Source: a virus
Virus record (IMG/VR): IMGVR_UViG_3300033144_003548
Direction: 5' to 3' (one strand)
DNA length: 64,000 nt
Shown piece by piece: positions 16,233-30,612 of this stretch; the first letter of the stretch is position 1; every line of letters starts with the position of its first letter. The notes under the pieces were generated by a model that was not told where the DNA came from, did no database searches, and saw only the letters and a program-made list of their open reading frames with translations. The position numbers and the translations under genes were made by a program.

Positions 16233-16685
16233 TTACTCCTTACCAACTTCTCTACAAACAAATCTAATACGATCTCTTGTAGGTACTCCTCTCTTAATTG
16301 TTCTAAAAATTTCCAGTTTTCTACTATCCACTCTGACTTCTTTTATCTTAACTATTTGAGTCTCTGAAAGAGAGTCTATACCAATAGTTATAAAACAATC
16401 ACCAGTCAGAGTCTCACCAGCGATCCCAAAATCCGATTCATCACCAGTACGCCACCTAACGTGAGCAAGGACTCCAGACTCAACATCCTGAGTGATCCAA
16501 TACTGACCAGAACAAATAGGACAAAATTGATCCAAACTAAGCTCATTTACACTATCATATAAATCAGCACCACTGCACACAGGGCAAGCAGTTTCAACAC
16601 CCTGTATAACAAACGTTACGGTCTGTCCGATAGCGTCTCTGATAGCATCCTTCGTGCTTTTAGTGGTTGGGAACTGTATCGTCAT
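16233..16685 (-). CDS. Putative head-closure protein with Zn ribbon
   Basis: CPVC..CPIC insert in a beta-barrel-like protein; position. Confidence 0.55.
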   Translation of the reverse strand: MTIQFPTTKSTKDAIRDAIGQTVTFVIQGVETACPVCSGADLYDSVNELSLDQFCPICSGQYWITQDVESGVLAHVRWRTGDESDFGIAGETLTGDCFITIGIDSLSETQIVKIKEVRVDSRKLEIFRTIKRGVPTRDRIRFVCREVGKE

Positions 16686-17961
16686 CTTTCTTCACTGTCT
16701 CCTCTTTCGTTACCTCACCAGCGTTAGCTTCTATTCTTACAGGTTCTTCCTCAGTATACTTCTTAGATAATGATTTATCACCATTCTGTAGCATATCCTG
16801 AATAACTTTGTCAAATTGATTCGCAATATAAGCCCAAGTAAACCGCTCTTGCTGAACATATTCATAAGCCTTCTTAGCCAGTTCCTTAGTCTTGTCTCTA
16901 TTCTGATACAAGTCTTCTAGTATATCAGCCAAATGCTCGACATTAATTACACCACCCTCGGTATTAATACCACCAGTGAGAACTTCCCATTCTTGGATCT
17001 CAATAAGAGGAGCGATACCTTCCCATAACTCCTTACAAGCTGAATGATTTGGAACAACTTGAGCTACTCCACAAGCTGCACTCTCAAATGGACTTAGACC
17101 AAAACCCTCTCCCATAGAAGTCATTACGTGAACATCAGCCACATTGTAGATCTTGCATAACGAGCTAAGAGAAACTCCGTGAGCAGGGGTAAAGTTAGTT
17201 TGGTCTGTAATTAAGAACCTATCATCTATTCCCCATCTCTGAGCAAGATCGACGAGATTCCAACCAACATCCTTTAGGCTTCCGTGATAATAAAATGAGA
17301 TATTCTTTCTATCCTCTGGAGACTTACGGCTCAACCATAGCTGCATAGCTTTTAGGAATAAATCAAGCCTTTTTCTAGGTTGATTTCTATTAATATTTTG
17401 AACTACAAACGCATCGGGTGGGACATTCGCAAGAAACTTTCTAGCATCTTCCATCGGATAAAACTCATCAGTATCAACACCGTGACCTATAATATCAACA
17501 TTAATTCCTTCGTGTGCTGCTTGTATTCCATCCTTTGCAAAGTTAGTATAAGTACCAACTCTAGCATTAACTCTGGTTAGATTATTAATCCAGTTGCTAT
17601 GTACTGGTAGAGCATCAACAGGTGAATAAGTAAAAATCCTATTGTTTTCTGGAATAAATTTTACATACTCCGCAACAATCCATAAATCATTATTTATAAT
17701 TATGATATGAGGTTGCTCTTTGGCTACCAATTCCTCTACTCGATTAAAACCATAAATGTTCCCCTTCGCCCTGGCTGGATATATTCTAAACATCCCTTCA
17801 TAACGATGCGGATCACCTATAGGATGGTTAATGCCCAAAATTGACACATCATACCTATCGGTCTGAAATAAACCTTCCAGAACTCCTTGTGAAACCCTTC
17901 CAAAACCAGTAGAGACAGCAGGACTATCACCAATCCATAAAACTTTTATCTTTCCGTTCAT
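16660..17961 (-). CDS. GT4 (GT-B) glycosyltransferase
   Basis: TGFGRV, HGVD, NRNQPRK, YNVAD, GEGFGLSPFESAACG; likely start MNGKIK at 17961. Confidence 0.92.
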   Translation of the reverse strand: MNGKIKVLWIGDSPAVSTGFGRVSQGVLEGLFQTDRYDVSILGINHPIGDPHRYEGMFRIYPARAKGNIYGFNRVEELVAKEQPHIIIINNDLWIVAEYVKFIPENNRIFTYSPVDALPVHSNWINNLTRVNARVGTYTNFAKDGIQAAHEGINVDIIGHGVDTDEFYPMEDARKFLANVPPDAFVVQNINRNQPRKRLDLFLKAMQLWLSRKSPEDRKNISFYYHGSLKDVGWNLVDLAQRWGIDDRFLITDQTNFTPAHGVSLSSLCKIYNVADVHVMTSMGEGFGLSPFESAACGVAQVVPNHSACKELWEGIAPLIEIQEWEVLTGGINTEGGVINVEHLADILEDLYQNRDKTKELAKKAYEYVQQERFTWAYIANQFDKVIQDMLQNGDKSLSKKYTEEEPVRIEANAGEVTKEETVKKDDDTVPNH

Positions 17962-17971
17962 AACCTCTCCT

Positions 17972-18673
17972 TTACCAAGCTGTCCTTTTTGCACCTACCA
18001 TTTTAGGTACATTAATTATCTCATCATTATCCTTCACCAGCACAACAGCATAACAAGAATTGCCGTGAAATTTCATTGGAACTGCACTAAAACCGTGCCC
18101 AAAATGTCTCATAGGTTTGCTATACTTAAAGTAAAATTTTGCAGTTTCGTGAAGGTGACCAGAATAAATAGCTCTCAAGTTATCCCTCAAAAGCTCGTGC
18201 TTATTTTCCACAGGTCTAGACCAAAATGGGTGGTGCGAGAACATAATATGATACCCTTCACCCTTCATTCTGGCTTTCAACCATTGATATTGCTGCGGAT
18301 CTTCAGCAGCCATAACATCTGCCCAACCTACAGCAAACCTGTGCCTCATAAAAGAAGTGTCAAGAAACTCTAAATGATACCCACCAAGGTTTAGTGTCTT
18401 GTATCTATCACCAAAGTTATCACTCCAATGGTCACTACCATCATAATCACCAGGTAGAACTACAACCTTATGACGTATTTTATTAATGGTTTTTGTCGCC
18501 AAATCAATTGTTTCTTTGTCGGGAGTGTGAGCTATATCGCCAGTTGCAATAACCAAATCAACCGCTTCTTGGTTAATTGGATCTACCATAGGTTCAAGCA
18601 AATTCCTGTGTTTAGTAATGTGCAAGTCCGAAATCTGGATAAACCTTAAAACGAACCTTTCCTTTGTTTCCAT
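17972..18673 (-). CDS. Calcineurin-like metallophosphoesterase
   Basis: SDLH, TGD, PGDYD (GNHD variant), HHP, SGHLH. Confidence 0.85.
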   Translation of the reverse strand: METKERFVLRFIQISDLHITKHRNLLEPMVDPINQEAVDLVIATGDIAHTPDKETIDLATKTINKIRHKVVVLPGDYDGSDHWSDNFGDRYKTLNLGGYHLEFLDTSFMRHRFAVGWADVMAAEDPQQYQWLKARMKGEGYHIMFSHHPFWSRPVENKHELLRDNLRAIYSGHLHETAKFYFKYSKPMRHFGHGFSAVPMKFHGNSCYAVVLVKDNDEIINVPKMVGAKRTAW

Positions 18674-18688
18674 ATCCTCTCCTTTATT

Positions 18689-18717
18689 ATTATACCATTT
18701 TTTAATTTAATTGTCAA
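18689..18717 (-). promoter_or_regulatory. Sigma-A promoter TTGACA-17-TATAAT (extended -10)
   Basis: TTGACAATTAAATTAAAAAATGGTATAAT upstream of phosphoesterase. Confidence 0.85.
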
Positions 18718-18880
18718 TATATATAAAGTATACGGTAATAAGCACACGGCTCAGCACCTTAAACTATCATCAAGTATTAAATATTCATTAGTAGGTGATA
18801 GAAACTTTCCAGCACCAAGCGCCAATTGCGGGGGAGGGAAGCCACAAATCAGACCTCTCCTCCCCACAACCTGCACTATA

Positions 18881-19378
18881 TTATATCGTCTGAACCTGAA
18901 CGCCACCAATCTCCGCCTTACTTGGGCTTGTTGGTGAACCCTCAAGCTTCGTAATAACTTCCTTCAGGTAGTCAATAGTTCTTACTTGTTTGTTTTCTTC
19001 TTGAGCAATCTCCAGCAATCTTATAACTGGAACAGGTGAAGTAAACTTATCAACTCTAGGCTTCATCTTGCTCAAAGGTTTCTTTAACAAATCTCTCAGG
19101 TAACCATCGCTAACCGCATTAGTTTCATCGAGAGACAAAGTGTGCTCCGAAATCTCGATTAAATACCCTTGCACGATTGCTGACTTATTATTCTTTTTGA
19201 AATACTTTTCAGCTTCTCCATCGGTAAGCTCAATAGTCATCGCATCAACGTCAGCATTTGGATCATTCGGGTCACCTTTCAGTAAAAACTCTTCTGGATC
19301 TCCCTTCTTATTAAGAATTCTGCCACCTACAGATCCTCTGATGGCTTTTCTCCAAAATTTAGGATAACTGTCTTCCAT
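18881..19378 (-). CDS. Hypothetical virion-associated protein after major capsid
   Basis: ORF with GGAG RBS; position. Confidence 0.6.
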   Translation of the reverse strand: MEDSYPKFWRKAIRGSVGGRILNKKGDPEEFLLKGDPNDPNADVDAMTIELTDGEAEKYFKKNNKSAIVQGYLIEISEHTLSLDETNAVSDGYLRDLLKKPLSKMKPRVDKFTSPVPVIRLLEIAQEENKQVRTIDYLKEVITKLEGSPTSPSKAEIGGVQVQTI

Positions 19379-19486
19379 TTTAAACTCCTTTGTGTTTTTT
19401 ATACTAAGCTTCTGAACCTCTCTCCCGCCTAGTTAGGATTATTCGAGGGGAGGGAATTTAGCCCTCCCCATTTACATCAGCTTCGA

Positions 19487-20416
19487 TTAAGGCTTGTCCA
19501 GTCTGATTACAGCCACGTTCTCCATCCTGTCGAACATCAAACCAAATTGCTGGTAGATTCTGATGTGCCAAGTTGGAGGTGCTGTGCTCATATCAGTCCA
19601 CTGATCTTCTCTTGTGTCCCCATAAGTGATGAACTCACCGCACTCGTCACCTACCACGACAACCATATTGTCCTTGATAAGTGGAGTTCTGTCATATGGA
19701 TTATCATAGACTTGCTCCAAAGCGATGAAGTTAGCACCATAGTAAACACCAAACCAACCTGTTCTCCTGATCTCTTCAAGTGCTGAAGGAACAGGAATAG
19801 CAGCAGTAGGTGTAGCGATTTCTGTTGCTGTAGGTAGTCTGTAGCCAGCAAACTTTGTGATAGGAGCTAAGGCTGTTCTTCTGCCAACCACTGCCCTTAC
19901 TGCTCCAGCAGTATCAGCTATATAATCAATAGAATCTTCCAATGTGCTCCTAGTAATAGGACCTGTCACATAGTAGAAGTTATTACTATCGTTTATAGTA
20001 GCTAGGGTGTACATAGCATTCAATACCTTTGTTACATAGAAGTCAGAAAGCTTGGCTGTCATTTCCCTACGGATGTCATCGACAGTACCAATTTCTCCAG
20101 ACTCCACCTCCCACTCATTGTGGGAAACTTCTGCATATGCCTGATCCAAGTTGTAATTAACAACTTCTTTCACAGTGATCTGGCTAGATAGAGTTGTCTG
20201 ACCAGGAACTAACTGCCTGACCTCGATACCTCTACGCACTTTCTTTACCAGAGCATCACCAGGGTTAAGTGCTCTTGTATTCAAGAACATACCCACAATG
20301 TCCTGAGTAACGTGCTTAGGATCGATGTATTCGACAATCAATTCAGCCAGCGTATCTCTTGCAGCCTTGTTCTTAGCAATTTCCGCATAAGCTGTCTTAA
20401 ATTTCTCTAATTCCAT
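19487..20416 (-). CDS. Major capsid protein (HK97-fold, putative)
   Basis: 309 aa after scaffold and decoration genes; C-terminal QQFGL.FD...VAVIRL. Confidence 0.8.
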   Translation of the reverse strand: MELEKFKTAYAEIAKNKAARDTLAELIVEYIDPKHVTQDIVGMFLNTRALNPGDALVKKVRRGIEVRQLVPGQTTLSSQITVKEVVNYNLDQAYAEVSHNEWEVESGEIGTVDDIRREMTAKLSDFYVTKVLNAMYTLATINDSNNFYYVTGPITRSTLEDSIDYIADTAGAVRAVVGRRTALAPITKFAGYRLPTATEIATPTAAIPVPSALEEIRRTGWFGVYYGANFIALEQVYDNPYDRTPLIKDNMVVVVGDECGEFITYGDTREDQWTDMSTAPPTWHIRIYQQFGLMFDRMENVAVIRLDKP

Positions 20417-20477
20417 CTTTACTCCATTATTGGGGAGGGAGACTATCCCTCCCCGCCTACTCTATTTTTTTCAAAGG

Positions 20478-21029
20478 TTATCCAGTTTTGATAGTTAGTT
20501 CGCCCTTTGTGCTGTTAAACTCAAATACGATACCAACCTGTCCACCAGTTCCCTTATACCATTTACCACCAGACTTAACACTGATTCCATCACCCACATC
20601 AAATGAAGAGCCAGTGTAACAGCCAGATGTAACAGTGTAGATGCCATCATCATAAGCCAGCATCAACGCACCAGATAGAATTGTCTGCTCAGGACTCTTT
20701 AATCTAGGTGCAACCATTCTCAACTTTACGTCAGCAGGAAGATTCTCCTGTCCCTCTGGATACTCTCTCAAGGTATAAGGCTGAGATGTAGTATTACCAG
20801 TCTCATCAAGAGTTGGTAGAGACTCGTAAATAGGAGGTTTCTCATTGTAAACCCTGAACGCAGCTACGAAATGAGCAGCAGTATCATCATCGGCAGTAGG
20901 AAGTTGAGCACCCTGAACCACATCAGGGCTTGATTTGCCCGTAGCAGGAACAAGCTTCACAGCAAGCCCCGCCTGTATATCTTCCTGTGCAACGCAAGGA
21001 ATTGCTGTTCCTTGTAATTTAATTTCCAT
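20478..21029 (-). CDS. Head decoration/cement protein
   Basis: AQEDIQAGLAV...GIYTV...VGDGI pattern; between scaffold and capsid. Confidence 0.65.
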   Translation of the reverse strand: MEIKLQGTAIPCVAQEDIQAGLAVKLVPATGKSSPDVVQGAQLPTADDDTAAHFVAAFRVYNEKPPIYESLPTLDETGNTTSQPYTLREYPEGQENLPADVKLRMVAPRLKSPEQTILSGALMLAYDDGIYTVTSGCYTGSSFDVGDGISVKSGGKWYKGTGGQVGIVFEFNSTKGELTIKTG

Positions 21030-21052
21030 TATTTCTTACTCCTCTTAACAGT

Positions 21053-21994
21053 TTATTTTCTGTCCTTCTTCATCTCGTTCAGACCTTCCCTCACAGTTTC
21101 CACTGCATCAGAATCGTCTTCGCTAGAAATCTGAGGAACTTTTATGCTTGCTGAAGCCTTTGCTCCTTTCTTTAATTCACCCATCTTTGAAATTGTTACT
21201 TTCAAGACCTCTTCAGACATATTAAGCCAGTAATCAGCCTCAGCCTCAACATCAGCCTCGATGCCAGCTTCCTCTAATTGAGTTTTAATAGTCTTCAGCC
21301 TCTCCGCTTTTTCAGCAGCCTCTTCGGTATCGCTCTTGAACTTTCTCAAAGCCTCAAGCTCTTCCTTTTGATCGTTTAGCTCTTTTGTTAAGTCATCAAC
21401 TTGTGATGCTTTCTCTTCCAGAGCAGTCTTGTCAGCTTCTAATGTCTCTTTCTCTCTCTCTAAAGTTTCATTAGTAGCCTTAACAGTCTTCAACTCTGAC
21501 TCTAGAGCCTCAATCTTCTCTTTATCTTCCATATTTTCCTCCTCTGAACTATCAGATTCTAGAACGATGCTATCGCAACGCTCTCCCATCGTCTCGCTAT
21601 CATAGTATTCCACAAATGCTTGCGCCCAATCGAACTCATCTGACTCACCAACCTGAAGGTCCAGATTATAATGCCTTTTAGCGTAGCTCTTGATCCTTGA
21701 TTCAACGCTCTTGAACTTCTTACCTAAAATGGCTTTATTGTCAGCGTGATGGACATATCTCCAAGCAGCTAGGCATCTTGATTTTGTGTCTAATGGGTAT
21801 CTATAACACTCTGGATCACCATAGTCCGATTTGTTCTTTGGATACCCTTTTGGCGGACTCTTATGACAAAGCTGTTCCCTGCCCTGAGCAAACTCAGAAG
21901 GTTCTGTTTCTGCTTGAGAAGGAACACCAGCAACAAGAATCTGCCTAATAGCTTTCAATTGAGGAGTAGGTACATCTTTCAAATCAATATTCAT
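21053..21994 (-). CDS. Capsid scaffold protein (DUF6582-like N-terminal domain + coiled coil)
   Basis: YGDP...RYPLDT...AAWRY domain, long acidic coiled coil; between protease and capsid. Confidence 0.7.
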   Translation of the reverse strand: MNIDLKDVPTPQLKAIRQILVAGVPSQAETEPSEFAQGREQLCHKSPPKGYPKNKSDYGDPECYRYPLDTKSRCLAAWRYVHHADNKAILGKKFKSVESRIKSYAKRHYNLDLQVGESDEFDWAQAFVEYYDSETMGERCDSIVLESDSSEEENMEDKEKIEALESELKTVKATNETLEREKETLEADKTALEEKASQVDDLTKELNDQKEELEALRKFKSDTEEAAEKAERLKTIKTQLEEAGIEADVEAEADYWLNMSEEVLKVTISKMGELKKGAKASASIKVPQISSEDDSDAVETVREGLNEMKKDRK

Positions 21995-21996
21995 TT

Positions 21997-22620
21997 TTAT
22001 TTCACTCCAACAATTTGTTTTCTTCTCTTTAGCTCATCATCAATGGCTTTAATCATATCGAATGAACTAATAGAAACTAACGGTGTTCTACCCTCATAAG
22101 CAGGTGACTTGACCGCCGTTATTGCTTTAGTAGTAGTTCCAACTAACCACTCTACATCATCTTCCATTGAAGAGTCTTTGTATCTAATTTCCCACGAAAA
22201 GTTAACTGCCCTACCTTCGGATGTTTCTTTTTTGAAGAATTCAACAACATCAGGGAACTCATCATTATACAATGCACCAATAGCCACTACTTTATTTCCC
22301 TCTTGCTGACCCTCTTTCAAAACACCGATTTGAACAGCACCAGCGTGTCCTTGAACATCCGCCTCTTCAGGTTCATAATTTGCCTTAATAGGCATATATG
22401 ACATAGATTTGATCAGATTTGGAAACTCGTCTTGTCTTATGCCCTGGTTATTAGCATTAGGTTGATCATCAGCAAAAACGAGCTTGATCCAGGTTAGAAG
22501 AGGATTCTTATACTCGTCTGGAATTCCAGCCTCTGCCAAATTTTCAACAAATGCCAATGTCGTATTAAATGTTGCTTCTTTCATATTATTCCCACTCCCT
22601 CGGATTTGTATCCCATCCAT
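21997..22620 (-). CDS. Prohead protease
   Basis: NANNQG, GH, FSWE, PAY motifs; likely start MKEATF. Confidence 0.75.
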   Translation of the reverse strand: MDGIQIRGSGNNMKEATFNTTLAFVENLAEAGIPDEYKNPLLTWIKLVFADDQPNANNQGIRQDEFPNLIKSMSYMPIKANYEPEEADVQGHAGAVQIGVLKEGQQEGNKVVAIGALYNDEFPDVVEFFKKETSEGRAVNFSWEIRYKDSSMEDDVEWLVGTTTKAITAVKSPAYEGRTPLVSISSFDMIKAIDDELKRRKQIVGVK

Positions 22621-23086
22621 ACAGTCTACCGTATTTTGGTCGTGCCAGTTTCTTACCTGGTAATAACATATCTAATTCTCTAACATCATCTTCCAATGTA
22701 GAACTTCTTTGTCGTGCCGATTCAATATTAGAATAAGCGATCTCCTCATCCCGCCAACTAGCAACGTCACCCGATTCGGAAAATTTCTTTCCACTTTTTA
22801 TCATTACAGACGCTTGCAATACTATTGGTCGTCTATCTCTGTGTTGAATTACTGGTGGTGAAGACCAATCAAATGTTACGTTAGGATTCCTGTGAACCAC
22901 ACCTTCATTATCCACATAATACATATCATCCCACCTACGCATCAACGCAGCTACCGCTTCCCTCAAGACCATATGAAGATACTCGTCAGAAAATGTCGGA
23001 GTTGGGTCATTGTCTCCGATCTGAACTCTTAGAGGTATGATTAATTCTTCTAAATTGGATGTCTTAAATGCCATTTTCACCACCAA
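22586..23086 (-). CDS. Head-tail adaptor protein
   Basis: LRVQIGD...FSDE motif typical of adaptors. Confidence 0.65.
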   Translation of the reverse strand: MVVKMAFKTSNLEELIIPLRVQIGDNDPTPTFSDEYLHMVLREAVAALMRRWDDMYYVDNEGVVHRNPNVTFDWSSPPVIQHRDRRPIVLQASVMIKSGKKFSESGDVASWRDEEIAYSNIESARQRSSTLEDDVRELDMLLPGKKLARPKYGRLYGWDTNPREWE

Positions 23087-23140
23087 AATTATACTTAGAA
23101 ATGTGTCCTACAAATTTCTGACTACCTATGTCCTTCGCTA

Positions 23141-23407
23141 TCAAATTGTCTCCTTAACTTCCACCACCTGTCTTGAGGTAAATGTTTCTTGACCGACTAC
23201 GTAATCAAAATCAATTACATATACACCGATCTCATCAGGTTGCCACAAGCAATGCACAGTTTGATCTTGAACTCCACCAACACCACTGGCAACAACGCTC
23301 TCATCTTCCGTGTCATAGATTGTATATGTAACACCAGATATAGTCAAAGGAGCACTGCTAACAACTGCGTATGCGTATCTCTTTTCTCCGATAGTCCAAG
23401 GTTTCAT
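23141..23407 (-). CDS. Small Ig-like structural protein
   Basis: Beta-strand pattern, GVYVIDFDY. Confidence 0.55.
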   Translation of the reverse strand: MKPWTIGEKRYAYAVVSSAPLTISGVTYTIYDTEDESVVASGVGGVQDQTVHCLWQPDEIGVYVIDFDYVVGQETFTSRQVVEVKETI

Positions 23408-23503
23408 TAGTCCTCTATTTCCTCCACATTCTTATATTACACTTCCCCAAGAGGCACTCTATAAGTACCGTCTAACTTATCAATAGGCATTTACGCCCTC
23501 TAC

Positions 23504-23540
23504 TATATATATTACCATTTTTTGGGCGTTTCTTCCCAAA
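23504..23540 (-). promoter_or_regulatory. Candidate phage-specific (late) promoter TTTGGGAAGA-N9-AAAATGGTAATATATATA, copy 1
   Basis: Identical bipartite motif also at 41845-41881; both intergenic. Confidence 0.6.
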
Positions 23541-23574
23541 TAACGGCTAGGTTAATTTTAACGAAACTTCTAAA

Positions 23575-24720
23575 CTAAGAAATAAAAGATAATCTACCAG
23601 AATTTGCCCTAACCAAAGTCTTATATACCTTATTCGCTACAACCTTCCAAGAGAATTTATCACGCATACTTTGCTCTAGTGCTTCGTTGCCTCTTAAAGC
23701 TAGAAACTCTCTGTCTTTATACAACAACTCTAACTTATCAGCAAGACTATCCTCACTGATAACTCCACCAATAAAAGACGTTCCTGCTAAATACTCCTCA
23801 CGAGCTATGTCTATAAACTCCGCTCCCTGAGTCCATATATCCTTTAAATTGCCGTGTGGTGGGCAGAGGACTGGAACAGCACAAGCAGCACCTTCGATTA
23901 AGGATAAACCAAAGCCCTCCCCAAGAGAAGTATTAACATTCACATCCATTATATTGTAGAGCATATTAATCTTCTCAAAATCCAAAGGTGAGCCACTTAG
24001 TATGGTCTTATCGGAGATATTAAAATCCTTAACAAGAGTTGGAAGATCGTAAGCTATATCCTTGTTTGTTGCGTGAATCAAACATTTTACATCGTTCTTA
24101 CCCTTAGCAAACTTGGCGAAACCCGATAAGAACAAATCTAGTCTCTTTCTATATGTATTGGTATTGTTATTGCCAACAACAAAAAGCCCCTCTACACCTA
24201 AGCTGGCTTTGGCATCAGGAATCTTAAAGAAGACAGAAGGAGCAACACCGTGATAAATAGCTGTAACATCAAGGTTAGGGTTTATCTCTTCAACCTTCTT
24301 CTTAGAGTAGTCGGTATAAGTCATAACTGATTCGATACCATATCTAGAGAATTCCAACATCCTACCAGCATCAATAGGTAAGAGATTAACAGGAAACAGA
24401 GGAACAATTCGTGGTGGTGATGCTAAATCATTTAATAGCGTTCCCAAATACTTTTCGATTATGTGGTCATCATTGAACAGCACAACTACATCAGGAGTTT
24501 CTTCCTTTATAACAGTAGATAAATAATCAAAGGAATACATATCACCTAGTGCAGTCTGTGCTGGATAGATATAGTATGGATAAGGATGTCTCTTCCTACC
24601 ATCATATCTAATACCGTACACTATTAATTCACACTTTGTATAGAGTTCATTACATATGTTGTGCGTAACTATACTAAATCCTGAATTTACGATAGCATCA
24701 CCAACCCACAAAACCTTCAT
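23575..24720 (-). CDS. GT4 (GT-B) glycosyltransferase, paralog of 16660
   Basis: KVLWVGD, SGF, HGV, RKRLDLFL, GEGFGLSLIE. Confidence 0.92.
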   Translation of the reverse strand: MKVLWVGDAIVNSGFSIVTHNICNELYTKCELIVYGIRYDGRKRHPYPYYIYPAQTALGDMYSFDYLSTVIKEETPDVVVLFNDDHIIEKYLGTLLNDLASPPRIVPLFPVNLLPIDAGRMLEFSRYGIESVMTYTDYSKKKVEEINPNLDVTAIYHGVAPSVFFKIPDAKASLGVEGLFVVGNNNTNTYRKRLDLFLSGFAKFAKGKNDVKCLIHATNKDIAYDLPTLVKDFNISDKTILSGSPLDFEKINMLYNIMDVNVNTSLGEGFGLSLIEGAACAVPVLCPPHGNLKDIWTQGAEFIDIAREEYLAGTSFIGGVISEDSLADKLELLYKDREFLALRGNEALEQSMRDKFSWKVVANKVYKTLVRANSGRLSFIS

Positions 24721-24731
24721 AATTCCTCTCC

Positions 24732-25250
24732 TTATATCGTGTTAGGACCCCAGGTAATTCTCCTATGTTGAGGTGACCTCTTAATATTAGGAACTTTGGT
24801 AACTATTTCTCTCTCTTCCGATTCACCTTTAACGGGTTCGTATACAGTCACACGCTTCACCTCAACTGCTGAATCCCAATCAACGGTCACGTCATCGCCA
24901 GACATTGACCAGTTAACTTTATACATCTTTGCTCCCTTTTCAACAATGATATAATCATCAAAAACGTCTGCAACCCAAGGTCCCGTAGGTGGTGATTCAA
25001 CGATCTGAGATGGACCCATAATAGCCTCACGAATCTTCTTTTCAAGCTCCCAAAGCTCTTCTCTCATACTAAGCTCAGCATCCTCTTCCTCACTCTTTTT
25101 CACTTTCCAATTATTCTTTTTTAACTGAGCCTTGCAAATAGCAATTGCACGACTCTCTGGATATTTAGGGTTAGATTCCATTACAGACTCTACACACCTC
25201 TCCATCCATCTAGTCTGCTCAGGCTTTTCATTAGGTATTCCATATGGCAT
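24732..25250 (-). CDS. Putative head-associated protein
   Basis: MPY...WMERCV...AIAIC motif common in phage head genes. Confidence 0.55.
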   Translation of the reverse strand: MPYGIPNEKPEQTRWMERCVESVMESNPKYPESRAIAICKAQLKKNNWKVKKSEEEDAELSMREELWELEKKIREAIMGPSQIVESPPTGPWVADVFDDYIIVEKGAKMYKVNWSMSGDDVTVDWDSAVEVKRVTVYEPVKGESEEREIVTKVPNIKRSPQHRRITWGPNTI

Positions 25251-25253
25251 TTT

Positions 25254-25358
25254 TTACTCATCCTCCCTAAAGATTAAAGGGGTAAATTCGGTGCATCCAC
25301 ATTCGCACTCTTCTACCTCATCACTAACAACTCTGTGGCATTCATTACATACTTTCAT
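25254..25358 (-). CDS. 34-aa Zn-ribbon microprotein
   Basis: Own translation MKVCNECHRVVSDEVEECECGCTEF...; ATGA overlap with upstream gene. Confidence 0.55.
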   Translation of the reverse strand: MKVCNECHRVVSDEVEECECGCTEFTPLIFREDE

Positions 25359-25936
25359 CTCAGTATCAAACAAACTCTACGATTGTCATCAACCAAATCT
25401 TTCCTTGCCACTTCAAACCCATCTAGAAGATAATTCAGTGTTTCATCGTTATAAACACGCATCCAATTATCTCCCCACCTAGATTTATCCGCTCTCCAAT
25501 TACCGTAAGGAATGGTAACAAACATAAAACCACTATCAGTCAGAAGCTCTCTACTAGCAATTAAAGCTTGCCTATCACCCCCCTCGTCAATCCAAGTATT
25601 ATGATAAGCCTTCAAACCGATGTGTTCAAGACTAGACATAAAAATAATGTCATCAAACTTTACATCAAACGAATAATCTCTAATGTCACCGATAACGAAG
25701 TTATACTTTTTATCAGAAAAGTCACCCCAACAAGATCTCTCATTTATATCTATACCCCAAACCGTTTCATAATAGCTAACTAAGAAGTCAGCCAATCTAC
25801 TCTCCTGACAACCGACATCAAGAACACACCCCTTATATCTTATATTTTCTAAAATCCACCTAAGCTCTGGAACAGTCCCCGCATTAAAATTGCCTTTTAT
25901 TGGGTATTTAGCCACAAGCTCAGAATATTTATCCAT
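25355..25936 (-). CDS. Class I SAM-dependent methyltransferase
   Basis: VLDVGC, GID, FDDI, SSLEHIG. Confidence 0.85.
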   Translation of the reverse strand: MDKYSELVAKYPIKGNFNAGTVPELRWILENIRYKGCVLDVGCQESRLADFLVSYYETVWGIDINERSCWGDFSDKKYNFVIGDIRDYSFDVKFDDIIFMSSLEHIGLKAYHNTWIDEGGDRQALIASRELLTDSGFMFVTIPYGNWRADKSRWGDNWMRVYNDETLNYLLDGFEVARKDLVDDNRRVCLILR

Positions 25937-26669
25937 TCTTTCTCCAAAACAGAGAAGCTGACGTGAAGTTCACTGGTCTGGACGGAAAGTGCGTCCTGCC
26001 CCTCAGATACTCTGGTTCTAAATTTTTTGGGTTACTGCTTTGATAAGTATTCACTGGTTCTACTACAAGTAAACCAACCTCTTTCTCGATAATCTCCAGT
26101 ACATTGTTATCAAAGTACAGGATGTTACCAAATTTAATAATCTCATTAGTAGGTTCTAAATTCCACTCTGTAGTCATCCCACAAACACCACCAACTTTAA
26201 GAGTTCTTTTTATCTCTTTGAAGCACTGTAGAATATCTGGTAGCTCACCTATGTGCTCTACCGATGATGAACTCCAAATTACATCAAAAGTATTGTCCTC
26301 GAATTCGATGTGCTTCATATCCATTGGCATAACAGTCAATCTGGCTCTATCATAGGGAATTTTATTAAACCTATAAATTTGTTCTGGTGTATAGTTGTGC
26401 TTCCCCCAAAACTTACTGGGATAATAGGCTATATCAGTGGCATAAACGTGACCAAAATAATTAGCAAGCAAGAAAATAAGTGGTTCTCTCAAACAACCCA
26501 GTCCTAAAGCAATCTTCTCGTTACCAAAGCACCTCAATCTCTTAAAACCATAGCTTAATATGAAATTCTCCCAACTTTTCCTACGAACCCCAAACGTTGC
26601 AAATTCTCTAACTTCATTAAACTCTGGTGAAGAGAAATCATCGTAATCAAAAACTTTATTTAGGTTCAT
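25929..26669 (-). CDS. Class I SAM-dependent methyltransferase
   Basis: LGLGC, FDVIWSSSSVEH, RTLKVGG. Confidence 0.85.
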   Translation of the reverse strand: MNLNKVFDYDDFSSPEFNEVREFATFGVRRKSWENFILSYGFKRLRCFGNEKIALGLGCLREPLIFLLANYFGHVYATDIAYYPSKFWGKHNYTPEQIYRFNKIPYDRARLTVMPMDMKHIEFEDNTFDVIWSSSSVEHIGELPDILQCFKEIKRTLKVGGVCGMTTEWNLEPTNEIIKFGNILYFDNNVLEIIEKEVGLLVVEPVNTYQSSNPKNLEPEYLRGRTHFPSRPVNFTSASLFWRKNG

Positions 26670-27981
26670 TTAATCCGCTCTCTAATACTTCCAGTACCTT
26701 AGCTATGCTACTATCACTTATAACACTGGGTGGTTTTATTTTGAGAACATTACCTAGTCCAGCGTGCTTATCACAACCAAACACGACACCACCTTTGTAG
26801 ATACCATAGTCAATAACTTTCTGCACCTTCTCTGGATATGGTTCTTTGGTATCTGGATTTTTAACTAGCTCAACACCAATAAGCAATCCTTCCTGTCTAA
26901 TATCACCAATTATAGGATACTTCTCTTGAAGCTTAATGAGTTCGGATTCAAATATTTTACCTTTCTCATCAGCTTGCTCACATATCTTCTCTTCCTCTAT
27001 GATTTTTAGGGCTTCTATACCAGCAACCATACTTAATGGGAAACTAGCAAATGTAAATGTTTGATCACCACCCCTAAAATCGAACTCATCTCCGTATAGT
27101 GTAGCTGCAAGAGGAAATCCTCCACCCAGTGCTTTACCAACTGTCATAATATCTGGTTTAAACCCATAGTAATCTGCTGCAAACAGCGAACTCAACTTAC
27201 CAAAGGCGGTTTGCATCTCGTCTGCAACCATAATAACACTATACTTATCACACAACCCACGCAACAACCTGTGATATTCGTACGGAAATGTTATTTGCCC
27301 ACCATTACCTTGAATGGGTTCATATATAATAGCACTTGGTCTCTTTTTTGAAAATATCCTCTCAGTTTCTTCTAAGCATTCGTAACTACAGCTACCTCTA
27401 GATTTACCAAATTTACACCTGTAGCAATAAGGACTTGGTAATCTTACAACCTCAGTTTTTAAAACATCAAATTCTGGTTTTTCCTTATAATCCCAACTCA
27501 ACGAACCAGTTGCTAAACTCCTCCCGCAAAACCCAGTATCAAGAACCGCTATCGGTGATTTAGGGTACTTTATTAGAATTAGCTTTATTGCTCCCTCAAC
27601 TGCAAGAGAACCGTGCAGACAGAAATTTACTTTGGTTAAATTGTCTGGTACGATATTAATTAACTTATAAGCTAACTCTAATTTAGGAATTGTATAATAA
27701 CTGGGACGGATGTGAACAAGTCCGCTATCCATTGTCTTCTTGACCGCTTCTATAACTCTAGGATGACTATGCCCAATTGTAGCCGTCCAGCCTTGGGAGC
27801 AACAATCAACATACGAATCTCCCCACTCGTCATATATAAACTCTCTTTCTGCACGAGCAATAACAAAGAACCTATCTAAGTCACCAGCACTGGCAACACC
27901 CAATCTCTTTTTAGGCTCTTTAAGAATTTCTAAGTCTATCGCTTTATTCCTGCCAATTTGGTGAAAATCTATCGTAGTCAT
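26656..27981 (-). CDS. Class III PLP-dependent aminotransferase
   Basis: IGHSHP, GSLAVEGA, EPIQGNGG, DEMQTAFG, PDIMTVGKALGGG; likely start MTTIDF at 27981. Confidence 0.9.
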   Translation of the reverse strand: MTTIDFHQIGRNKAIDLEILKEPKKRLGVASAGDLDRFFVIARAEREFIYDEWGDSYVDCCSQGWTATIGHSHPRVIEAVKKTMDSGLVHIRPSYYTIPKLELAYKLINIVPDNLTKVNFCLHGSLAVEGAIKLILIKYPKSPIAVLDTGFCGRSLATGSLSWDYKEKPEFDVLKTEVVRLPSPYCYRCKFGKSRGSCSYECLEETERIFSKKRPSAIIYEPIQGNGGQITFPYEYHRLLRGLCDKYSVIMVADEMQTAFGKLSSLFAADYYGFKPDIMTVGKALGGGFPLAATLYGDEFDFRGGDQTFTFASFPLSMVAGIEALKIIEEEKICEQADEKGKIFESELIKLQEKYPIIGDIRQEGLLIGVELVKNPDTKEPYPEKVQKVIDYGIYKGGVVFGCDKHAGLGNVLKIKPPSVISDSSIAKVLEVLESGLNEPK

Positions 27982-29038
27982 ATCTCTTCTCCATAGCAGG
28001 TGCTCTGGTAATTTCCATACCAAACCTGCGATAAAAGTCTTCTTTCCCAGGGTCAGCAATCAAGAATACTTTGATTGGGTTAAGCATCTCAGCTTTCCTG
28101 AACAACTCCTTGACAATAGTAGTTCCTACCCCAATACCTTGATAGGCAGGTCTTACCATAACATCCCAAATAGCAACTGCATAAGCACCATCTGTAAAAT
28201 ATCTTCCAGAACCAATAACCCTACCATTTCTCCTCACCACTGCAAAGGTGGAATTTTTAATGATGGTGCTGTCTCTTTCAAGATTACGCATACTCAGATG
28301 TAAACCACCAAACTCCCCCATATCCTTATAAAGAGAATTAAGCTCCTTTAGAGTGATACTATCACCAAGCTCCAGTTCGGGTGCGTCAAACATTTTCTTT
28401 GCTTGTTCATACTCCTCTGGAGTATCTATTTCCATCCAGTCATACCTAACAAATTCTGGTATTGCGTGAAAGGAACTAATGTGCTTACGAACTATGGACA
28501 CCAACTCCTCTTTTTCCACATTGTTAAGTTGTTTTGCCAGCCTTCTCACAAACTCTGGAGGATAAACTGCCAGTCCAAGCATCACACAGTAATCATATTC
28601 ACGACCAATATCAGTAATTCTATTATTGAAGTCTACTTTTATACCAAGCTCACCTGGACTCCAATGGTGCTTTAGGTTGTCAACAAAATATTGGAACTTC
28701 GGTTGAATGTCAAAGTAGATACGGTAATCTAACATTAGATCACCATCCACGCAGATAACAAAGTCCTCAGTTCCACATTTATCTAAGGCTAATTTGAAAC
28801 TATAAGCATTTCCTGTAGTCTCAAATCTATCGTTACGAACATACTCTACTGAATCTCCAAAATCGGGGAGCATCTCACTTTTGTAGCCAGTGACCACATA
28901 AACTTTATCAACCCCAATATCCCTTAGACCAGTAATCTTATGTTCTAGTATTGTCTTACCATCTAATTTTAGCAGTGATTTGGGGAAATCAATTCCCATT
29001 CGTGAACCCTTACCTGCTGCTAATATTATTGCTTTCAT
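27944..29038 (-). CDS. Nucleotidyl(cytidylyl)transferase (LicC-like) fused to GNAT acetyltransferase
   Basis: MKAIILAAGKGSR..PK, DGD, WMEIDTPE; C-terminal DVMVRPAYQGIGVG...FYRRFG. Confidence 0.88.
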   Translation of the reverse strand: MKAIILAAGKGSRMGIDFPKSLLKLDGKTILEHKITGLRDIGVDKVYVVTGYKSEMLPDFGDSVEYVRNDRFETTGNAYSFKLALDKCGTEDFVICVDGDLMLDYRIYFDIQPKFQYFVDNLKHHWSPGELGIKVDFNNRITDIGREYDYCVMLGLAVYPPEFVRRLAKQLNNVEKEELVSIVRKHISSFHAIPEFVRYDWMEIDTPEEYEQAKKMFDAPELELGDSITLKELNSLYKDMGEFGGLHLSMRNLERDSTIIKNSTFAVVRRNGRVIGSGRYFTDGAYAVAIWDVMVRPAYQGIGVGTTIVKELFRKAEMLNPIKVFLIADPGKEDFYRRFGMEITRAPAMEKRYDYDRFSPNWQE

Positions 29039-29675
29039 TATCTAACCTCATTACATAAACTCTATCCCACACCATATCAACTAATCTCTTCGCTTTAAGA
29101 CTATCACTAATCTTCTGTTGAAGCAGACTGTCCACAGGTGCTAATAGTTTTATCCACTCCTCACGTGGTCGAAGATTTATATGAGTAGGATCACTTTTTC
29201 CTCGACCAATCGTTAGAACTGCCTTGCTAGTCCCAATTCTCCTAATTTCTCTGATTGCTTGCTCGGTAAGTTCGGGTGGCAAATGTTCCATTACTTCCAA
29301 GCAAACTACCAAATCAAAAGTGCTATCATCAAATCTTGATAAGTCGGTCATAGAACCTTCAATTATCAAATCACGAACTGGTGATTCACGGATCATAAAA
29401 TCAGCTATCTCTACACCGATAATGTCTATATCAAGTTGTTTAAATCTCTCTACATCAAACCCTATGCCACACCCTAATGAAATAGCTTTTTTAGGTTTGC
29501 CATAGAACTCCACAATAGTATCAACTATTTTATGATTGTATGGTCTATATCTGTTGAAGTAGCTTTTCTTAGTAAACGTCCCTCCTCCACCACCTACACC
29601 CTTCGCCCCCCAATAAGCATACTCCTCATTAGCTACCACAGAGTACTTGTCAGTATCTACACCAAACTTATCCAC
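29010..29675 (-). CDS. Class I SAM-dependent methyltransferase
   Basis: SLGCGIG, FDLVVCLEVMEH, DPTHIN. Confidence 0.88.
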   Translation of the reverse strand: MDKFGVDTDKYSVVANEEYAYWGAKGVGGGGGTFTKKSYFNRYRPYNHKIVDTIVEFYGKPKKAISLGCGIGFDVERFKQLDIDIIGVEIADFMIRESPVRDLIIEGSMTDLSRFDDSTFDLVVCLEVMEHLPPELTEQAIREIRRIGTSKAVLTIGRGKSDPTHINLRPREEWIKLLAPVDSLLQQKISDSLKAKRLVDMVWDRVYVMRLDNESNNISSR

Positions 29676-30612
29676 AAATTTCCTCTATCTTATCAACTAT
29701 CTTTTGCGTTGACTTACCATCACAATATCCAAGAGCTTTCTCTACCCAATATTCTCTTCTCCCTTTATACTTGTCTGAGTTGGCTAAACTACTCTCTACT
29801 GCTTGTTTAAGACCCGACAAATCGTCACGAGAAACTATCTCACCGAGATCAAGACTTTCAGTCATATTTTCTTTAGCTATCTTCAAGTAACTAGGATATT
29901 GAGGATTATCAATTAACACAATTGGTTTATCAAGAAGAGCAAACTCAAAAACCAGACTAGAAACATCTCCTATAAGCAAATCACAACCCAAGAGATAGTC
30001 AAACTTCCTATCATAATTAGACGCAACCTTCAAATGATATTCATATTTGTTCTTATAACTACACATTTCGTGAGGCATAAAAATTACATTACAATTAGGA
30101 AGCGATTTCACAATGTCCATAAGCTTATCGGCATTGCCAGGTGGTTGAGATGTGTTACTTTTGGTATAGGTAGGAGCAAACAAGATCAGAGGTTTATTAT
30201 CTGCTATCCCGTGACACCTCTTGACAAACTCCTTAAATTCGTGTTGTTTACTCTTATTGTTTATGTAGTAATCTGCCTTGGACCACCCTAAACCAAGAAT
30301 ATTGCCACGCAAGTTATCTTCAAAAAACTTGCTCGGAACAATTACGTAATCCCATTCAGGGTACTCTTGTGCCCAGTTCTTTATGAATGAGACTCCGTGA
30401 AAAATGAGAAAAGAAGGCTTAATAGGAGGTTTTTTGCAAATCCAACTTCCAGTTTGACACCCCAAACTACCTCTAACATTCTTGTCTATATTGTAACTAC
30501 TTGCTTTACCAGCTATAACCACCCAACCTCGCTTCCTCAACTCATCTTCAATAGGACTAAGAACTAGATCGTACTGAGTAAAGTCACGGATTATCTGGAA
30601 CTTCTTCTCCAT
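29668..30612 (-). CDS. CDP-glycerol glycerophosphotransferase (TagF/TagB) family transferase
   Basis: FHG...K, GWSKAD, LFAPTY, PH, D.LIGDVSS..FEF..LDKP; likely start MEKKFQ at 30612. Confidence 0.85.
   Translation of the reverse strand: MEKKFQIIRDFTQYDLVLSPIEDELRKRGWVVIAGKASSYNIDKNVRGSLGCQTGSWICKKPPIKPSFLIFHGVSFIKNWAQEYPEWDYVIVPSKFFEDNLRGNILGLGWSKADYYINNKSKQHEFKEFVKRCHGIADNKPLILFAPTYTKSNTSQPPGNADKLMDIVKSLPNCNVIFMPHEMCSYKNKYEYHLKVASNYDRKFDYLLGCDLLIGDVSSLVFEFALLDKPIVLIDNPQYPSYLKIAKENMTESLDLGEIVSRDDLSGLKQAVESSLANSDKYKGRREYWVEKALGYCDGKSTQKIVDKIEEICG

Follow-up and report, generated by a model that had tools for sequence, protein, structure and literature searches.

The 64,000-nucleotide stretch of DNA analysed here (the window) belongs to an uncultured phage of 139 kb and raises the question of what a cassette of TagF-like, methyltransferase and other tailoring enzymes does between portal and capsid genes. 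An earlier note on this DNA had read it as a complete pathway inserted in the head module and acting on virion proteins or on DNA. Beyond that note, the main point of the present analysis is that the window cassette represents one allele of a hypervariable locus, which lies in the head-gene operon of a phage lineage with genomes of about 130-150 kb and probably serves in glycan tailoring.

Genomic setting

The landmarks around the cassette are the following:

32060-33649, minus strand, large terminase (phrog_2)
30584..32056, minus strand, portal
24732..25250, minus strand, o172, small conserved protein marking the 3' edge of the variable locus
19487..23407, minus strand, head genes o88, o166, o207, o313 (scaffold-like coiled coil), o183b (cement-like candidate, a Phage_cement lead only) and o309, in an order kept in relatives
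19487-20416, minus strand, o309, HK97-fold major capsid protein
18689..18717, minus strand, perfect extended -10 promoter of the sigma-70 type, ahead of the phosphoesterase and GT4b genes

The portal was assigned by a weak PHROG match (phrog_2739, E 1.5e-9) together with its position after the large terminase, and it forms the conserved 5' flank of the variable locus, with 59-82% identity across 38 related contigs. At the opposite edge, o172 stands directly 3' of every complete cassette and matches, weakly, the N-terminus of a prohead-protease PHROG and nothing else. The head-tail adaptor named in the earlier note could not be identified; past GT4a lie unknowns, the scaffold-like coiled-coil protein and the cement-like candidate. 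Homologues of o309 (about 50% identity) carry PF27364, the YonB capsid family. For o309 itself, the ESM Atlas gave 0.98, and a structural model (pLDDT 64.7) matched exclusively HK97-fold capsid and encapsulin shell proteins in Foldseek (best E 1.3e-8). Thus, the setting of the cassette is truly a head module. Neighbouring cassette genes overlap or lie end to end, on the same strand as the terminase, portal and capsid genes. The promoter at 18689..18717 has 12 of 12 consensus bases, with the TG; in the left arm, the minus strand has only three such perfect sites, at 18717, 38364 and 42642. Between those at 38364 and 18717, neither a consensus promoter nor a convincing terminator was found.

Enzymes of the locus

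All genes claimed previously (TagF-like, three SAM methyltransferases, LicC-like-GNAT fusion, aminotransferase, GT4s and phosphoesterase) were recovered on the minus strand and at the same positions:

29668..30612, minus strand, TagF-like CDP-alcohol phosphotransferase (PF04464, E 1.2e-22)
29010..29675, minus strand, SAM methyltransferase MT1 (Methyltransf_11, E 5e-12), adjoining the TagF-like gene
27944..29038, minus strand, LicC/IPCT/GlmU-N-like nucleotidyltransferase fused to a GNAT N-acetyltransferase (NTP_transf_3, 5e-18; Acetyltransf_1, 4e-11)
26656..28059, minus strand, class III (omega-type) PLP aminotransferase (PF00202, E 6e-78)
25929..26669, minus strand, accessory SAM methyltransferase MT2 (Methyltransf_11, E 3.5e-13)
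25355..25936, minus strand, accessory SAM methyltransferase MT3 (DUF268 / Methyltransf_25)
23575..24720, minus strand, GT4a glycosyltransferase (Glyco_trans_1_4 / Glycos_transf_1, E ~1e-11)
17972..18673, minus strand, calcineurin-like metallophosphoesterase, core (PF00149, E 5e-12)
16660..17994, minus strand, GT4b glycosyltransferase, core (phrog_2170, E 4e-45)

The TagF-like open reading frame spans 29668-30738, and its start was set, as in relatives, at Met43, i.e., base 30612, which coincides exactly with the end of the region in the earlier note. The protein matches the solved TagF, TarL and Cps3D, with the histidine equivalent to H584 aligned, and two histidines are invariant in an alignment of six sequences. 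The nucleotidyltransferase-GNAT fusion is rare, occurring in only 14 protein clusters; its solved relatives are LicC, IPCT, the GlmU N-domain and serotonin N-acetyltransferase, and across 12 homologues neither the GxGTR..K motif of the nucleotidyltransferase nor motif A of the GNAT varies. The aminotransferase probably begins some 20 codons into its open reading frame. Among solved structures it comes closest to GABA aminotransferase and amino-acid racemases (E 1e-51); its NCBIfam matches are all far below the curated cut-offs and point to no particular substrate. MT1 (family 2 of our tally) occurs in 8/10 TagF-type cassettes and MT2 (family 6) in a subset of them, and MT3 (family 20) turned up in three cassettes only, those of the window, L128 and L130. 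Over their full length, GT4a and GT4b are paralogous to each other (31% identity, E 4e-57).

A hypervariable locus with conserved flanks

The main new result is comparative: the post-portal site swaps cassettes between related phages, with at least 10 gene arrangements in 33 portal-linked related contigs. Alternative cassettes include 6-deoxyhexose, heptose, C-methyl, radical-SAM and CMP-sugar/Maf-like sets, built from families such as GDP-mannose dehydratase, epimerase/RmlD, GT2, C- and O-methyltransferases, B12-radical SAM, HldE-like and ThDP enzymes, DegT and CMP-sugar synthetase. The distribution of cassette types over the portal tree is patchy and does not follow the tree. In contigs G006 and G009, the portals are 91% identical and the cassettes share only distant paralogues (23-31% identity), with no detectable DNA similarity; L006 and G006, with portals of 64% identity, have four cassette genes that are 69-87% identical. 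The alleles of L138 and L134 each contain three tandem, putatively Maf-type genes of PF01973, a Pfam family that covers archaeal MptE kinases too; in L138, the allele scanned, a CMP-sugar synthetase gene (PF02348) adjoins them.

Despite the change of cassettes, nearly all relatives retain GT4a, GT4b and the phosphoesterase. GT4a is nearly core, being missing among the long contigs from G001 only (orthologues 45-62% identical), and GT4b shows 63-74% identity in relatives. GT4b and the phosphoesterase come after the capsid gene. The phosphoesterase had been counted as part of the pathway, a role that its distribution does not bear out: it is not specific to the cassette, and its orthologues (42-60% identity) adjoin GT4b in relatives with quite different cassettes. 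A sequence search found no solved relative for it.

The best NCBIfam matches at the locus bring to mind a different product, namely a soluble small molecule such as a CDP-activated or N-acetylated amino compound or an osmolyte-like phosphodiester, made as auxiliary metabolism at a head-operon site that would be accidental and permissive. The nucleotidyltransferase best matches the archaeal inositol-1-phosphate cytidylyltransferase of di-myo-inositol-phosphate synthesis and GT4b best matches MshA; the two are enzymes of small-molecule pathways, and each match falls far short of its cut-off. In addition, sites just past the portal gene often tolerate inserted genes. Nevertheless, at least 10 different sugar-nucleotide/transferase sets at one site, next to two conserved glycosyltransferases, agree better with the building of glycans on a shared acceptor than with unrelated metabolites, and the Maf-type genes of the sister alleles would encode protein glycosyltransferases. 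We therefore consider a small-molecule product very improbable.

Proposed function and its alternatives

The likeliest job of the locus, which we put at about an even chance, would be to glycosylate the virion proteins of the phage in the cytoplasm during assembly, the glycan carrying an N-acetylated or N-methylated amino compound through a phosphodiester. Starting from the observed gene content, conserved catalytic motifs, operon position, locus variability and lack of membrane steps, we infer every chemical step, donor and acceptor of the following pathway. GT4a and GT4b would attach a sugar to Ser/Thr residues in a head protein. The group added after glycosylation would begin with the class III aminotransferase, aminating a phosphorylated carbonyl metabolite of host origin. 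In the fusion enzyme, the GNAT half could then N-acetylate the amine and the LicC-like half activate the phosphate as a CDP-ester, with methyl groups added by MT1 and optionally by MT2 and MT3. Finally, the TagF-like enzyme would use the CDP donor to attach the phospho-linked group to a hydroxyl of the sugar, giving a phosphodiester. Since N-acetyltransferase and N-methyltransferases on one amine partly conflict, some of the methyltransferases may be O-methyltransferases. As relatives carry different sets of sugar-nucleotide and tailoring genes at this site, the surface glycans would be many and varied across the lineage.

The logic proposed earlier (amine formation, N-acylation/methylation, CDP activation and TagF-type phosphodiester transfer onto a glycosyltransferase-laid sugar) is sound, has a precedent in FtaB/C/D of Clostridioides difficile and agrees with the retained catalytic motifs. 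That the pathway is complete is unproven: a search limited to the APH family found no such kinase gene in the genome. On the acceptor side, no shared C-terminal Gly-Ser or Thr tags were seen on structural proteins, and the one hypervariable, Thr/Ser/Ala/Pro-rich capsid loop (residues 194-208) showed no co-variation with cassette type.

The enzymes might instead modify a host structure (wall polymer, S-layer protein, pilin or flagellin), blocking superinfection or keeping progeny off debris. TagF-family enzymes normally work on wall teichoic acids and capsules, and soluble GT4-type enzymes, e.g., TarM, modify wall polymers from the cytoplasmic side. That host wall polymers can be modified from inside the cell by soluble transferases counts against the virion reading. 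The Maf and Fta precedents, moreover, target a host surface protein, flagellin. Similar marine myophage gene islands are usually read as host modification: in pelagimyophages and cyanomyophages, structural regions contain hypervariable islands rich in glycosyltransferase and deoxy-sugar genes, which their authors interpret as modifying the host O-chain (PMC7029224). This published reading likewise counts against a virion target. However, no membrane-embedded step is found among the cassette proteins: 0/127 from 13 relatives have more than one hydrophobic 19-mer and none resembles a multi-pass membrane protein, and thus flippase, polymerase and initiating polyprenyl-phosphate transferase are missing. 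Besides, the genes lie inside the head block and, judging from strand and promoter layout, are transcribed together with those for terminase, portal and capsid, not with early or lysogeny genes, and both GT4s stay by the capsid genes throughout the lineage. Accordingly, modification of a host structure appears unlikely.

Proximity to terminase and portal would also suit a hypermodification of phage DNA, in which the glycosyltransferases act on a modified base around packaging, the TagF-like enzyme adds a phospho-group and restriction drives the diversity. Phage glycosyltransferases related to LPS and teichoic-acid enzymes place mono- to trisaccharides, including heptose, on 5hmC, and the clusters that encode them may be located close to genes for terminase and structural proteins (bioRxiv 10.1101/2023.12.21.572611). 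The precursor of arabinosylated cytosine is made by thymidylate-synthase homologues (PMC13326640), and the present genome carries a divergent thymidylate-synthase-like gene of 215 aa, its sole candidate precursor enzyme. Yet this gene lies about 30 kb off in the replication module, and 2/5 near-complete genomes (G008 and G009, both 100% complete) lack the homologue but keep GT4a, GT4b and a cassette. C5 DNA methylases were found in 0/5 near-complete genomes; a TET/JBP search gave no match, but neither did its control, and the negative therefore carries little weight. We know of no Maf-type or TagF-type enzyme with a demonstrated action on DNA. Nothing ties the cassette to the GGC/GCC pattern, the suggested DNA mark is unsupported, and we regard DNA modification as distinctly improbable.

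Comparison with known systems

For virion-protein glycosylation, the closest working model is the type A flagellin pathway of C. difficile, consisting of the glycosyltransferase CD0240 and FtaABCD (CD0241-CD0244), which is proven on protein and in which the TagF-like FtaD moves a phospho-linked group onto a protein-bound sugar (PMC10714395; bioRxiv 10.64898/2026.02.12.704994). The b-type flagellin locus of P. aeruginosa (PA1088-PA1091) is a variant of it. Both the Fta system and the phage cassette comprise a glycosyltransferase, a LicC-like enzyme, a SAM methyltransferase and a TagF-like enzyme, all of them soluble. In C. difficile, they work in the cytoplasm on a self-assembling structural protein; the LicC-like cytidylyltransferase makes a CDP-linked amino compound, which the methyltransferase modifies. 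This likeness to FtaB, FtaC and FtaD is one of enzyme types. In the phage, a class III aminotransferase would supply the amine, whereas C. difficile uses an FtaA-type phosphotransferase; the phage nucleotidyltransferase is fused to GNAT, up to three methyltransferases occur and the presumed acceptor is a head protein. Maf proteins, known as Ser/Thr O-glycosyltransferases of flagellin (bioRxiv 10.1101/2020.06.03.131540) that transfer nonulosonic acids, have putative counterparts in the L138 and L134 alleles but not in that of the window.

The locus resembles the "host recognition cluster" of pelagimyophages and cyanomyophages in being a non-syntenic island of glycosyltransferase and deoxy-sugar/heptose genes amid conserved structural genes; that cluster, however, lies between VrlC and the neck protein gp14, includes tail fibres and averages 34-45 kb (PMC7029224), whereas the present site, between portal and head genes, has soluble enzymes only, no fibres and two bracketing conserved GT4s. 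With sugar hypermodification of DNA (T-even glucosylation, 5hmC glycans, arabinosyl-5hoC), it shares glycosyltransferases from envelope-glycan families, diverse glycans and, sometimes, nearby packaging genes (bioRxiv 10.1101/2023.12.21.572611; PMC13326640). Such clusters need either a thymidylate-synthase homologue encoded close by or a methyltransferase together with a dioxygenase, none of which is linked to the locus here.

Virion glycosylation itself is described for the mycobacteriophages Che8, Corndog and Myrna, whose glycosyltransferases, according to the accounts of Freeman et al. (2023) in PMC11600133 and PMC12582341, O-glycosylate capsid and tail-tube proteins; in cluster O, an O-methyltransferase also takes part (PMC11600133). 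Compared with these, the present cassettes are much larger and extend to the de novo synthesis of sugar nucleotides and to a phosphodiester step of the TagF type. Among close relatives the locus is hypervariable, no C-terminal acceptor tags were seen and the host is likely different (a Chloroflexota lead from one MAG annotation). GT4b has no detectable homologue in mycobacteriophages known for virion glycosylation. A homologue of 34% identity lies between the portal and the protease/capsid genes of the cultured Synechococcus phage S-CBS4, followed there by a second transferase and a methyltransferase.

Gene order and transcription of the structural arm

The window spans bases 25924-89923 of a 138,618-bp IMG/VR record, which carries direct terminal repeats and is rated 100% complete. 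The gene order of its head region was derived from Pfam, PHROGs and NCBIfam scans and places every gene considered here on the minus strand, in the following direction of transcription:

Minus strand, first in the direction of transcription: ribonucleotide reductase, then large terminase (32060-33649)
30584-32056, minus strand: portal, after the large terminase
Minus strand, after the portal, in this order: TagF-like protein, methyltransferase MT1, NTP_transf_3 + GNAT fusion (NT-GNAT), class III aminotransferase, methyltransferases MT2 and MT3 (together the cassette)
Minus strand, after MT3: o172, glycosyltransferase GT4a, o88, o166, o207
Minus strand, after o207: o313, DUF6582 plus coiled coil, scaffold-like
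Minus strand, after o313: o183b, o309, o165
Minus strand, after o165: metallophosphoesterase and glycosyltransferase GT4b, followed by unannotated genes, presumably tail genes

The domain scans bear out the claim of an earlier note that enzymes of glycan type lie within the head module, with nine such genes present. The end coordinate given there, 30612, corresponds to Met43 of the TagF-like ORF, which is the start in all relatives, the ORF itself beginning further upstream. The same note had named a head-tail adaptor, for which no gene identifiable as such was found in the region. GT4a and GT4b are full-length paralogues (31% identity, E 4e-57) and the only Glycos_transf_1 genes of the whole genome. 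The G+C content is 0.38-0.43 across the region and, at 0.38-0.39 in the cassette, near that of the flanks. A megablast search with the complete region as query found no match among 50,697 phage records.

Strict promoter sites (TTGACA-N16-18-TAHAAT) occur eight times in the window, compared to 0.09 expected by chance, and the left arm features just three consensus promoters on the minus strand, at 42642, 38364 and 18717. These three (18689-18717, 38336-38364 and 42614-42642, minus strand) have a near-identical spacer start (TTGACAATTAA) and an extended -10 of the form ATGGTATAAT or ATGTTATAAT, common elements which suggest that the structural arm is served by a single class of regulated promoters. 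Since the cassette genes overlap or abut and no convincing terminator lies between them, cassette and head genes would most simply be read as a single transcription unit starting from 38364 and taking in reductase, terminase and portal. The next unit probably begins with the phosphoesterase and GT4b and would continue into the downstream genes.

A hypervariable locus between portal and o172

Portal, capsid and TagF-like proteins served as queries to fetch relatives, and long contigs were then extended. The upstream flank of the cassette (reductase, terminase, portal) is kept in these relatives, as is the downstream flank comprising o172, GT4a, o207, o313, o183b, o309, o165, in part o166, the phosphoesterase, GT4b and o150. 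The interval between portal and o172, however, is not conserved among them. In the 149-kb genome G001, which has terminal repeats, it encodes an Asn-synthase-like protein, an epimerase, a GDP-mannose 4,6-dehydratase, a C-methyltransferase, other methyltransferases and a B12-radical SAM protein. The corresponding interval of G002 holds a GT2, a short-chain dehydrogenase, two ThDP enzymes, an HldE-like kinase/cytidylyltransferase, an intein-bearing epimerase, a PanB-like enzyme and a zinc dehydrogenase. Counts over another 62 cassette proteins came to six each for GDP_Man_Dehyd, Epimerase and GT2, five for RmlD, three for radical SAM and two each for DegT, NTP_transferase and PfkB/CTP_transf_like; GNATs and many methyltransferases occurred as well.

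At least ten arrangements, being mosaics of common gene families, were distinguished among 33 portal-linked contigs with downstream ORFs. The commonest is the TagF type of the window (10 of the 33 contigs, plus one hybrid), whose core consists of the TagF-like gene and the NT-GNAT fusion, joined by the aminotransferase wherever the contig extends that far; eight of the ten have MT1, some have MT2, and MT3 occurs in three. Next in frequency (five contigs) is an arrangement with SIS, GT2-like, NT plus kinase-like and HAD genes, which in one of its representatives, L138, also includes, further on, three PF01973 genes in tandem together with a PF02348 cytidylyltransferase and two methyltransferases.

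In the portal tree, both the TagF type and a further type, 'D', fall in two well-supported clades each (100/100 and 99/98). The portals of the relatives G006 and G009 are 91% identical; their cassettes share distant paralogues only (23-31% identity), with no detectable DNA similarity. Conversely, L006 and G006 have portals of 64% identity, yet four of their cassette genes are 69-87% identical and the cassette DNA is 80% identical over 1.5 kb. Such comparisons indicate that cassettes are transferred between lineages. The TagF-type allele may be old rather than a recent mover, as the identity of its genes between clades (52-84%) is similar to that of the portal (63-66%).

Virion glycosylation in mycobacteriophages and glyco-gene islands in phage structural regions are already known. 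What is new is that at least ten exchangeable alleles occupy one fixed position between the portal and the head genes, that two conserved GT4s bracket the head genes, and that one allele combines aminotransferase, NT-GNAT and TagF-like genes.

The capsid protein and its neighbors

Homologues of o309 with about 50% identity (E ~1e-90) carry PF27364, the YonB capsid family, and the ESM Atlas grouped o309 with capsid clusters (0.98). A first AlphaFold model from an 11-sequence alignment was unusable (pLDDT 35); a deeper alignment of 38 sequences gave a usable model of moderate quality (pLDDT 64.7), for which the Foldseek matches listed were solely HK97-fold capsids and encapsulin shell proteins (best E 1.3e-8; 349 matches with E <= 0.001). 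Neither hhalign to the capsid protein of phage S-CBS4 nor a profile search of PDB sequences gave a match. Taking homology and predicted fold together, o309 is assigned as the major capsid protein with an HK97 fold. Residues 194-208 form a hypervariable loop rich in Thr/Ser/Ala/Gly/Pro in an otherwise 80%-identical protein; the loop lies in a low-confidence part of the model and showed no co-variation with cassette type. The protein o183b, located at the position of lambda gpD, gave a weak lead to phage cement proteins.

Enzymes of the TagF-type allele

The TagF-like protein matches PF04464 with 80.9 bits (cut-off 22.1) over profile positions 127-366 of 367. Scores against the NCBIfam equivalogs TarF, TarL and TarB were all far under their cut-offs, and the protein is therefore none of these named enzymes. 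Two histidines, in 'FHGVS' and 'MPHEM', are invariant in six homologues. The equivalent of H584 of Staphylococcus epidermidis TagF was aligned (phmmer, 3l7j), and the 'FHGVS' histidine would be equivalent to H444, judged by motif rather than by alignment; we take H444 and H584 to be the catalytic histidines of that enzyme. In the fusion, the NT half has retained GxGTR..K and, among solved structures, is closest to LicC, inositol-1-phosphate cytidylyltransferase and the GlmU N-domain; motif A is kept in the GNAT half, which is closest to amine N-acetyltransferases. The aminotransferase, a class III enzyme of full length, is closest to GABA aminotransferase and related racemases and reached the cut-off of none of the specific subfamilies.

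The fusion is also encoded on a 62-kb 'Chloroflexota bacterium' contig and on other contigs. In cellular genomes, the NT-GNAT profile found distant NT domains only (25-44% identity) and no fused form, and a second cassette homologue lay close by in just 4/80 of the matching cellular loci. The best of these four, on a 7.8-kb contig of an uncultured bacterium (L035, 301-7779), encodes radical SAM, QueC, QueF, a TagF-like protein, an ABC exporter, a 419-aa NT and NUDIX; this joining of 7-deazaguanine genes to TagF-like and NT genes is an odd combination and gives no clue to the acceptor.

The earlier note had also listed a phosphoesterase after the capsid gene. This enzyme adjoins GT4b in relatives whichever cassette is present and is therefore no TagF-specific partner. 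Sequence searches retrieved no solved relative of it, and it is not genuinely similar to the phosphoesterase of S-CBS4.

Proposed chemistry

Because no APH-type kinase was found in the genome, the simplest scheme would provide the aminotransferase with a host-derived carbonyl compound that is already phosphorylated. The resulting phospho-amine would be converted to an N-acetyl and/or methyl derivative, activated as a CDP-ester and transferred with formation of a phosphodiester; the NT-GNAT fusion implies that acetylation and nucleotide activation would act on one and the same small molecule. We infer every step of this chain from the enzyme families encoded. Candidate compounds are serinol-, ethanolamine-, serine- or threonine-phosphate-like. 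The O-methyl-phosphoramidate pathway of Campylobacter jejuni was considered because automatic annotation calls some NT homologues 'L-glutamine-phosphate cytidylyltransferase', and was dropped since its kinase and amidohydrolase are absent. Likewise, a 2-aminoethylphosphonate route (LicC-like PntC plus transaminase; PDB 6pd1 is among the NT matches) was dropped, PEP mutase being absent from the window cassette.

Virion proteins, host surface or DNA as acceptor

Four lines of evidence favor a macromolecule in the cytoplasm as acceptor, most simply virion proteins. A simple hydropathy scan of 127 cassette proteins from 13 relatives found none with more than one hydrophobic 19-mer, and no flippase, polymerase, ABC permease or initiating transferase was found among them. 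In contrast, phage modules for seroconversion or envelope-glycan modification would be expected to have membrane components such as a flippase, polymerase, Gtr-type or initiating transferase. This difference bears on the reading that the enzymes modify a host structure instead of the virion, as has been proposed for pelagimyophages and cyanomyophages, whose structural regions contain hypervariable islands of glyco-genes that were taken to modify the host O-chain (PMC7029224). Transferases that are soluble are also able to modify wall polymers from the cell interior; a host acceptor is considered less likely than virion proteins.

The second result in favor of virion proteins is the position of the locus inside the head-gene block, with two glycosyltransferases retained beside the capsid genes across the lineage. 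The cultured Synechococcus phage S-CBS4 has a GT4b homologue (34% identity) at the same position, and Tetrasphaera phage TJE1 has one accompanied by sugar-nucleotide genes before the terminase. Thirdly, PF01973 Maf-type genes occur in sister alleles, and known Maf proteins are flagellin Ser/Thr O-glycosyltransferases (bioRxiv 10.1101/2020.06.03.131540).

Fourthly, the enzyme set bears its closest likeness to the type A flagellin system of Clostridioides difficile, in which the LicC-like FtaB forms CDP-threonine, the SAM methyltransferase FtaC N-methylates it, and the TagF-like FtaD moves the N-methylated group onto protein O-GlcNAc (PMC10714395; bioRxiv 10.64898/2026.02.12.704994). By domain type, the window and the C. 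difficile system (CD0240-CD0244) share a glycosyltransferase, a LicC-like NT, a SAM methyltransferase and a TagF-like enzyme, which in the window lie within 7 kb on one strand. However, the Fta system features an FtaA-type HAD/phosphoserine-phosphatase-like enzyme for a phospho-amino acid, whereas the window cassette has a class III aminotransferase and no HAD. C-terminal Gly-Ser or Thr-Thr acceptor tags common to the structural proteins were not found. A tblastn search with GT4b against the 50,697 phage records retrieved Synechococcus, Tetrasphaera and Microcystis phages only and none of the glycosyltransferases of Che8, Corndog or Myrna; with GT4b as query, no homology to the enzymes of mycobacteriophage virion glycosylation was thus detected. 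To our knowledge, phage-encoded virion glycosylation has been proven by experiment only in a few mycobacteriophages.

Hypermodification of phage DNA by the cassette appears quite improbable. Hypermodification of DNA with diverse glycans is indeed carried out by phage glycosyltransferases, whose genes are sometimes near packaging genes (bioRxiv 10.1101/2023.12.21.572611; PMC13326640). Nevertheless, DNA sugar hypermodification clusters link a precursor-base enzyme, either a thymidylate-synthase homologue or a C5 methyltransferase with a TET/JBP dioxygenase, to their glycosyltransferases, and none is linked here: the single candidate is a thymidylate-synthase-like gene in the replication module, about 30 kb off and outside the window (G000:C1:20073-20720; L034 4074-4721, minus strand). 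Flanked by a NUMOD3 endonuclease and a PD-(D/E)XK nuclease, beside a DnaB helicase, it encodes a divergent 215-aa protein with PPCL replacing the usual PCH and a PF00303 match in the C-terminal third only. It is present in three of five near-complete genomes (G000, G001 and G007) but missing from G008 and G009, both 100% complete, by profile and protein search. The five genomes gave no match to the C5 DNA methylase family (PF00145); the lack of TET/JBP (PF12851) matches in the near-complete genomes is a weak result, as the control matched nowhere either. The earlier suggestion that the cassette produces a GGC/GCC mark on DNA found no support, nothing tying the cassette to that pattern.

Returning to virion proteins, we tentatively propose a serotype-like, recombining head-operon locus, comparable to an O-antigen or capsule locus but serving the phage's own particle. 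Its alleles, at least ten in number, would give different glycan coats with 6-deoxy and C-methyl sugars, heptoses, nonulosonic acids and, in the window, a phosphodiester-linked N-acetylated/N-methylated amino compound not yet described on any virus. If this holds true, large environmental phages, probably of Chloroflexota, bear an exchangeable glycan locus, and particle-surface chemistry would be a fast-evolving phage trait that affects adsorption, stability and aggregation as well as how host defences or grazers recognize the particle. The window allele would likewise take TagF-type phosphodiester 'post-glycosylation', proven so far on bacterial flagellin, to a virus. Besides, the locus is a compact source of soluble sugar-tailoring enzymes.

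Insertions in the structural genes

An HNH endonuclease gene (phrog_5046; 13831-14292, minus strand) lies among the genes downstream of GT4b; relative L025 has a homologue at the same place, L029 a 37-residue remnant match, and most others none. The large terminase is uninterrupted in the window and split in several relatives (L003 6498-9125, L004 5754-8303, L009 2985-5693 and L010 4525-8772), where tblastn matches it in two to four pieces; the insertions between these, up to about 1.1 kb long, may be inteins, introns or homing-endonuclease insertions. In L022 (7000-8805), about 870 bp interrupt the capsid gene between residues 36 and 34 as numbered in the window protein, possibly an intron or homing element. 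The 152.7-kb genome G007 has a second insertion of about 9 kb after o165 (L026 6691-15551), with ORFs of 520, 811 and 716 aa, none of which occurs in the window. In G002, the cassette NDP-sugar epimerase/dehydratase contains an intein with a LAGLIDADG endonuclease (L016 8884-10896; PF14890, PF14528). The same genome has an enlarged GT4b (L017 11176-13515; 779 aa vs 444) and o150 (L017 9620-11185; 521 aa vs 150), each aligning with its window counterpart in two separate parts, a pattern suggestive of large in-frame insertions, for example inteins.
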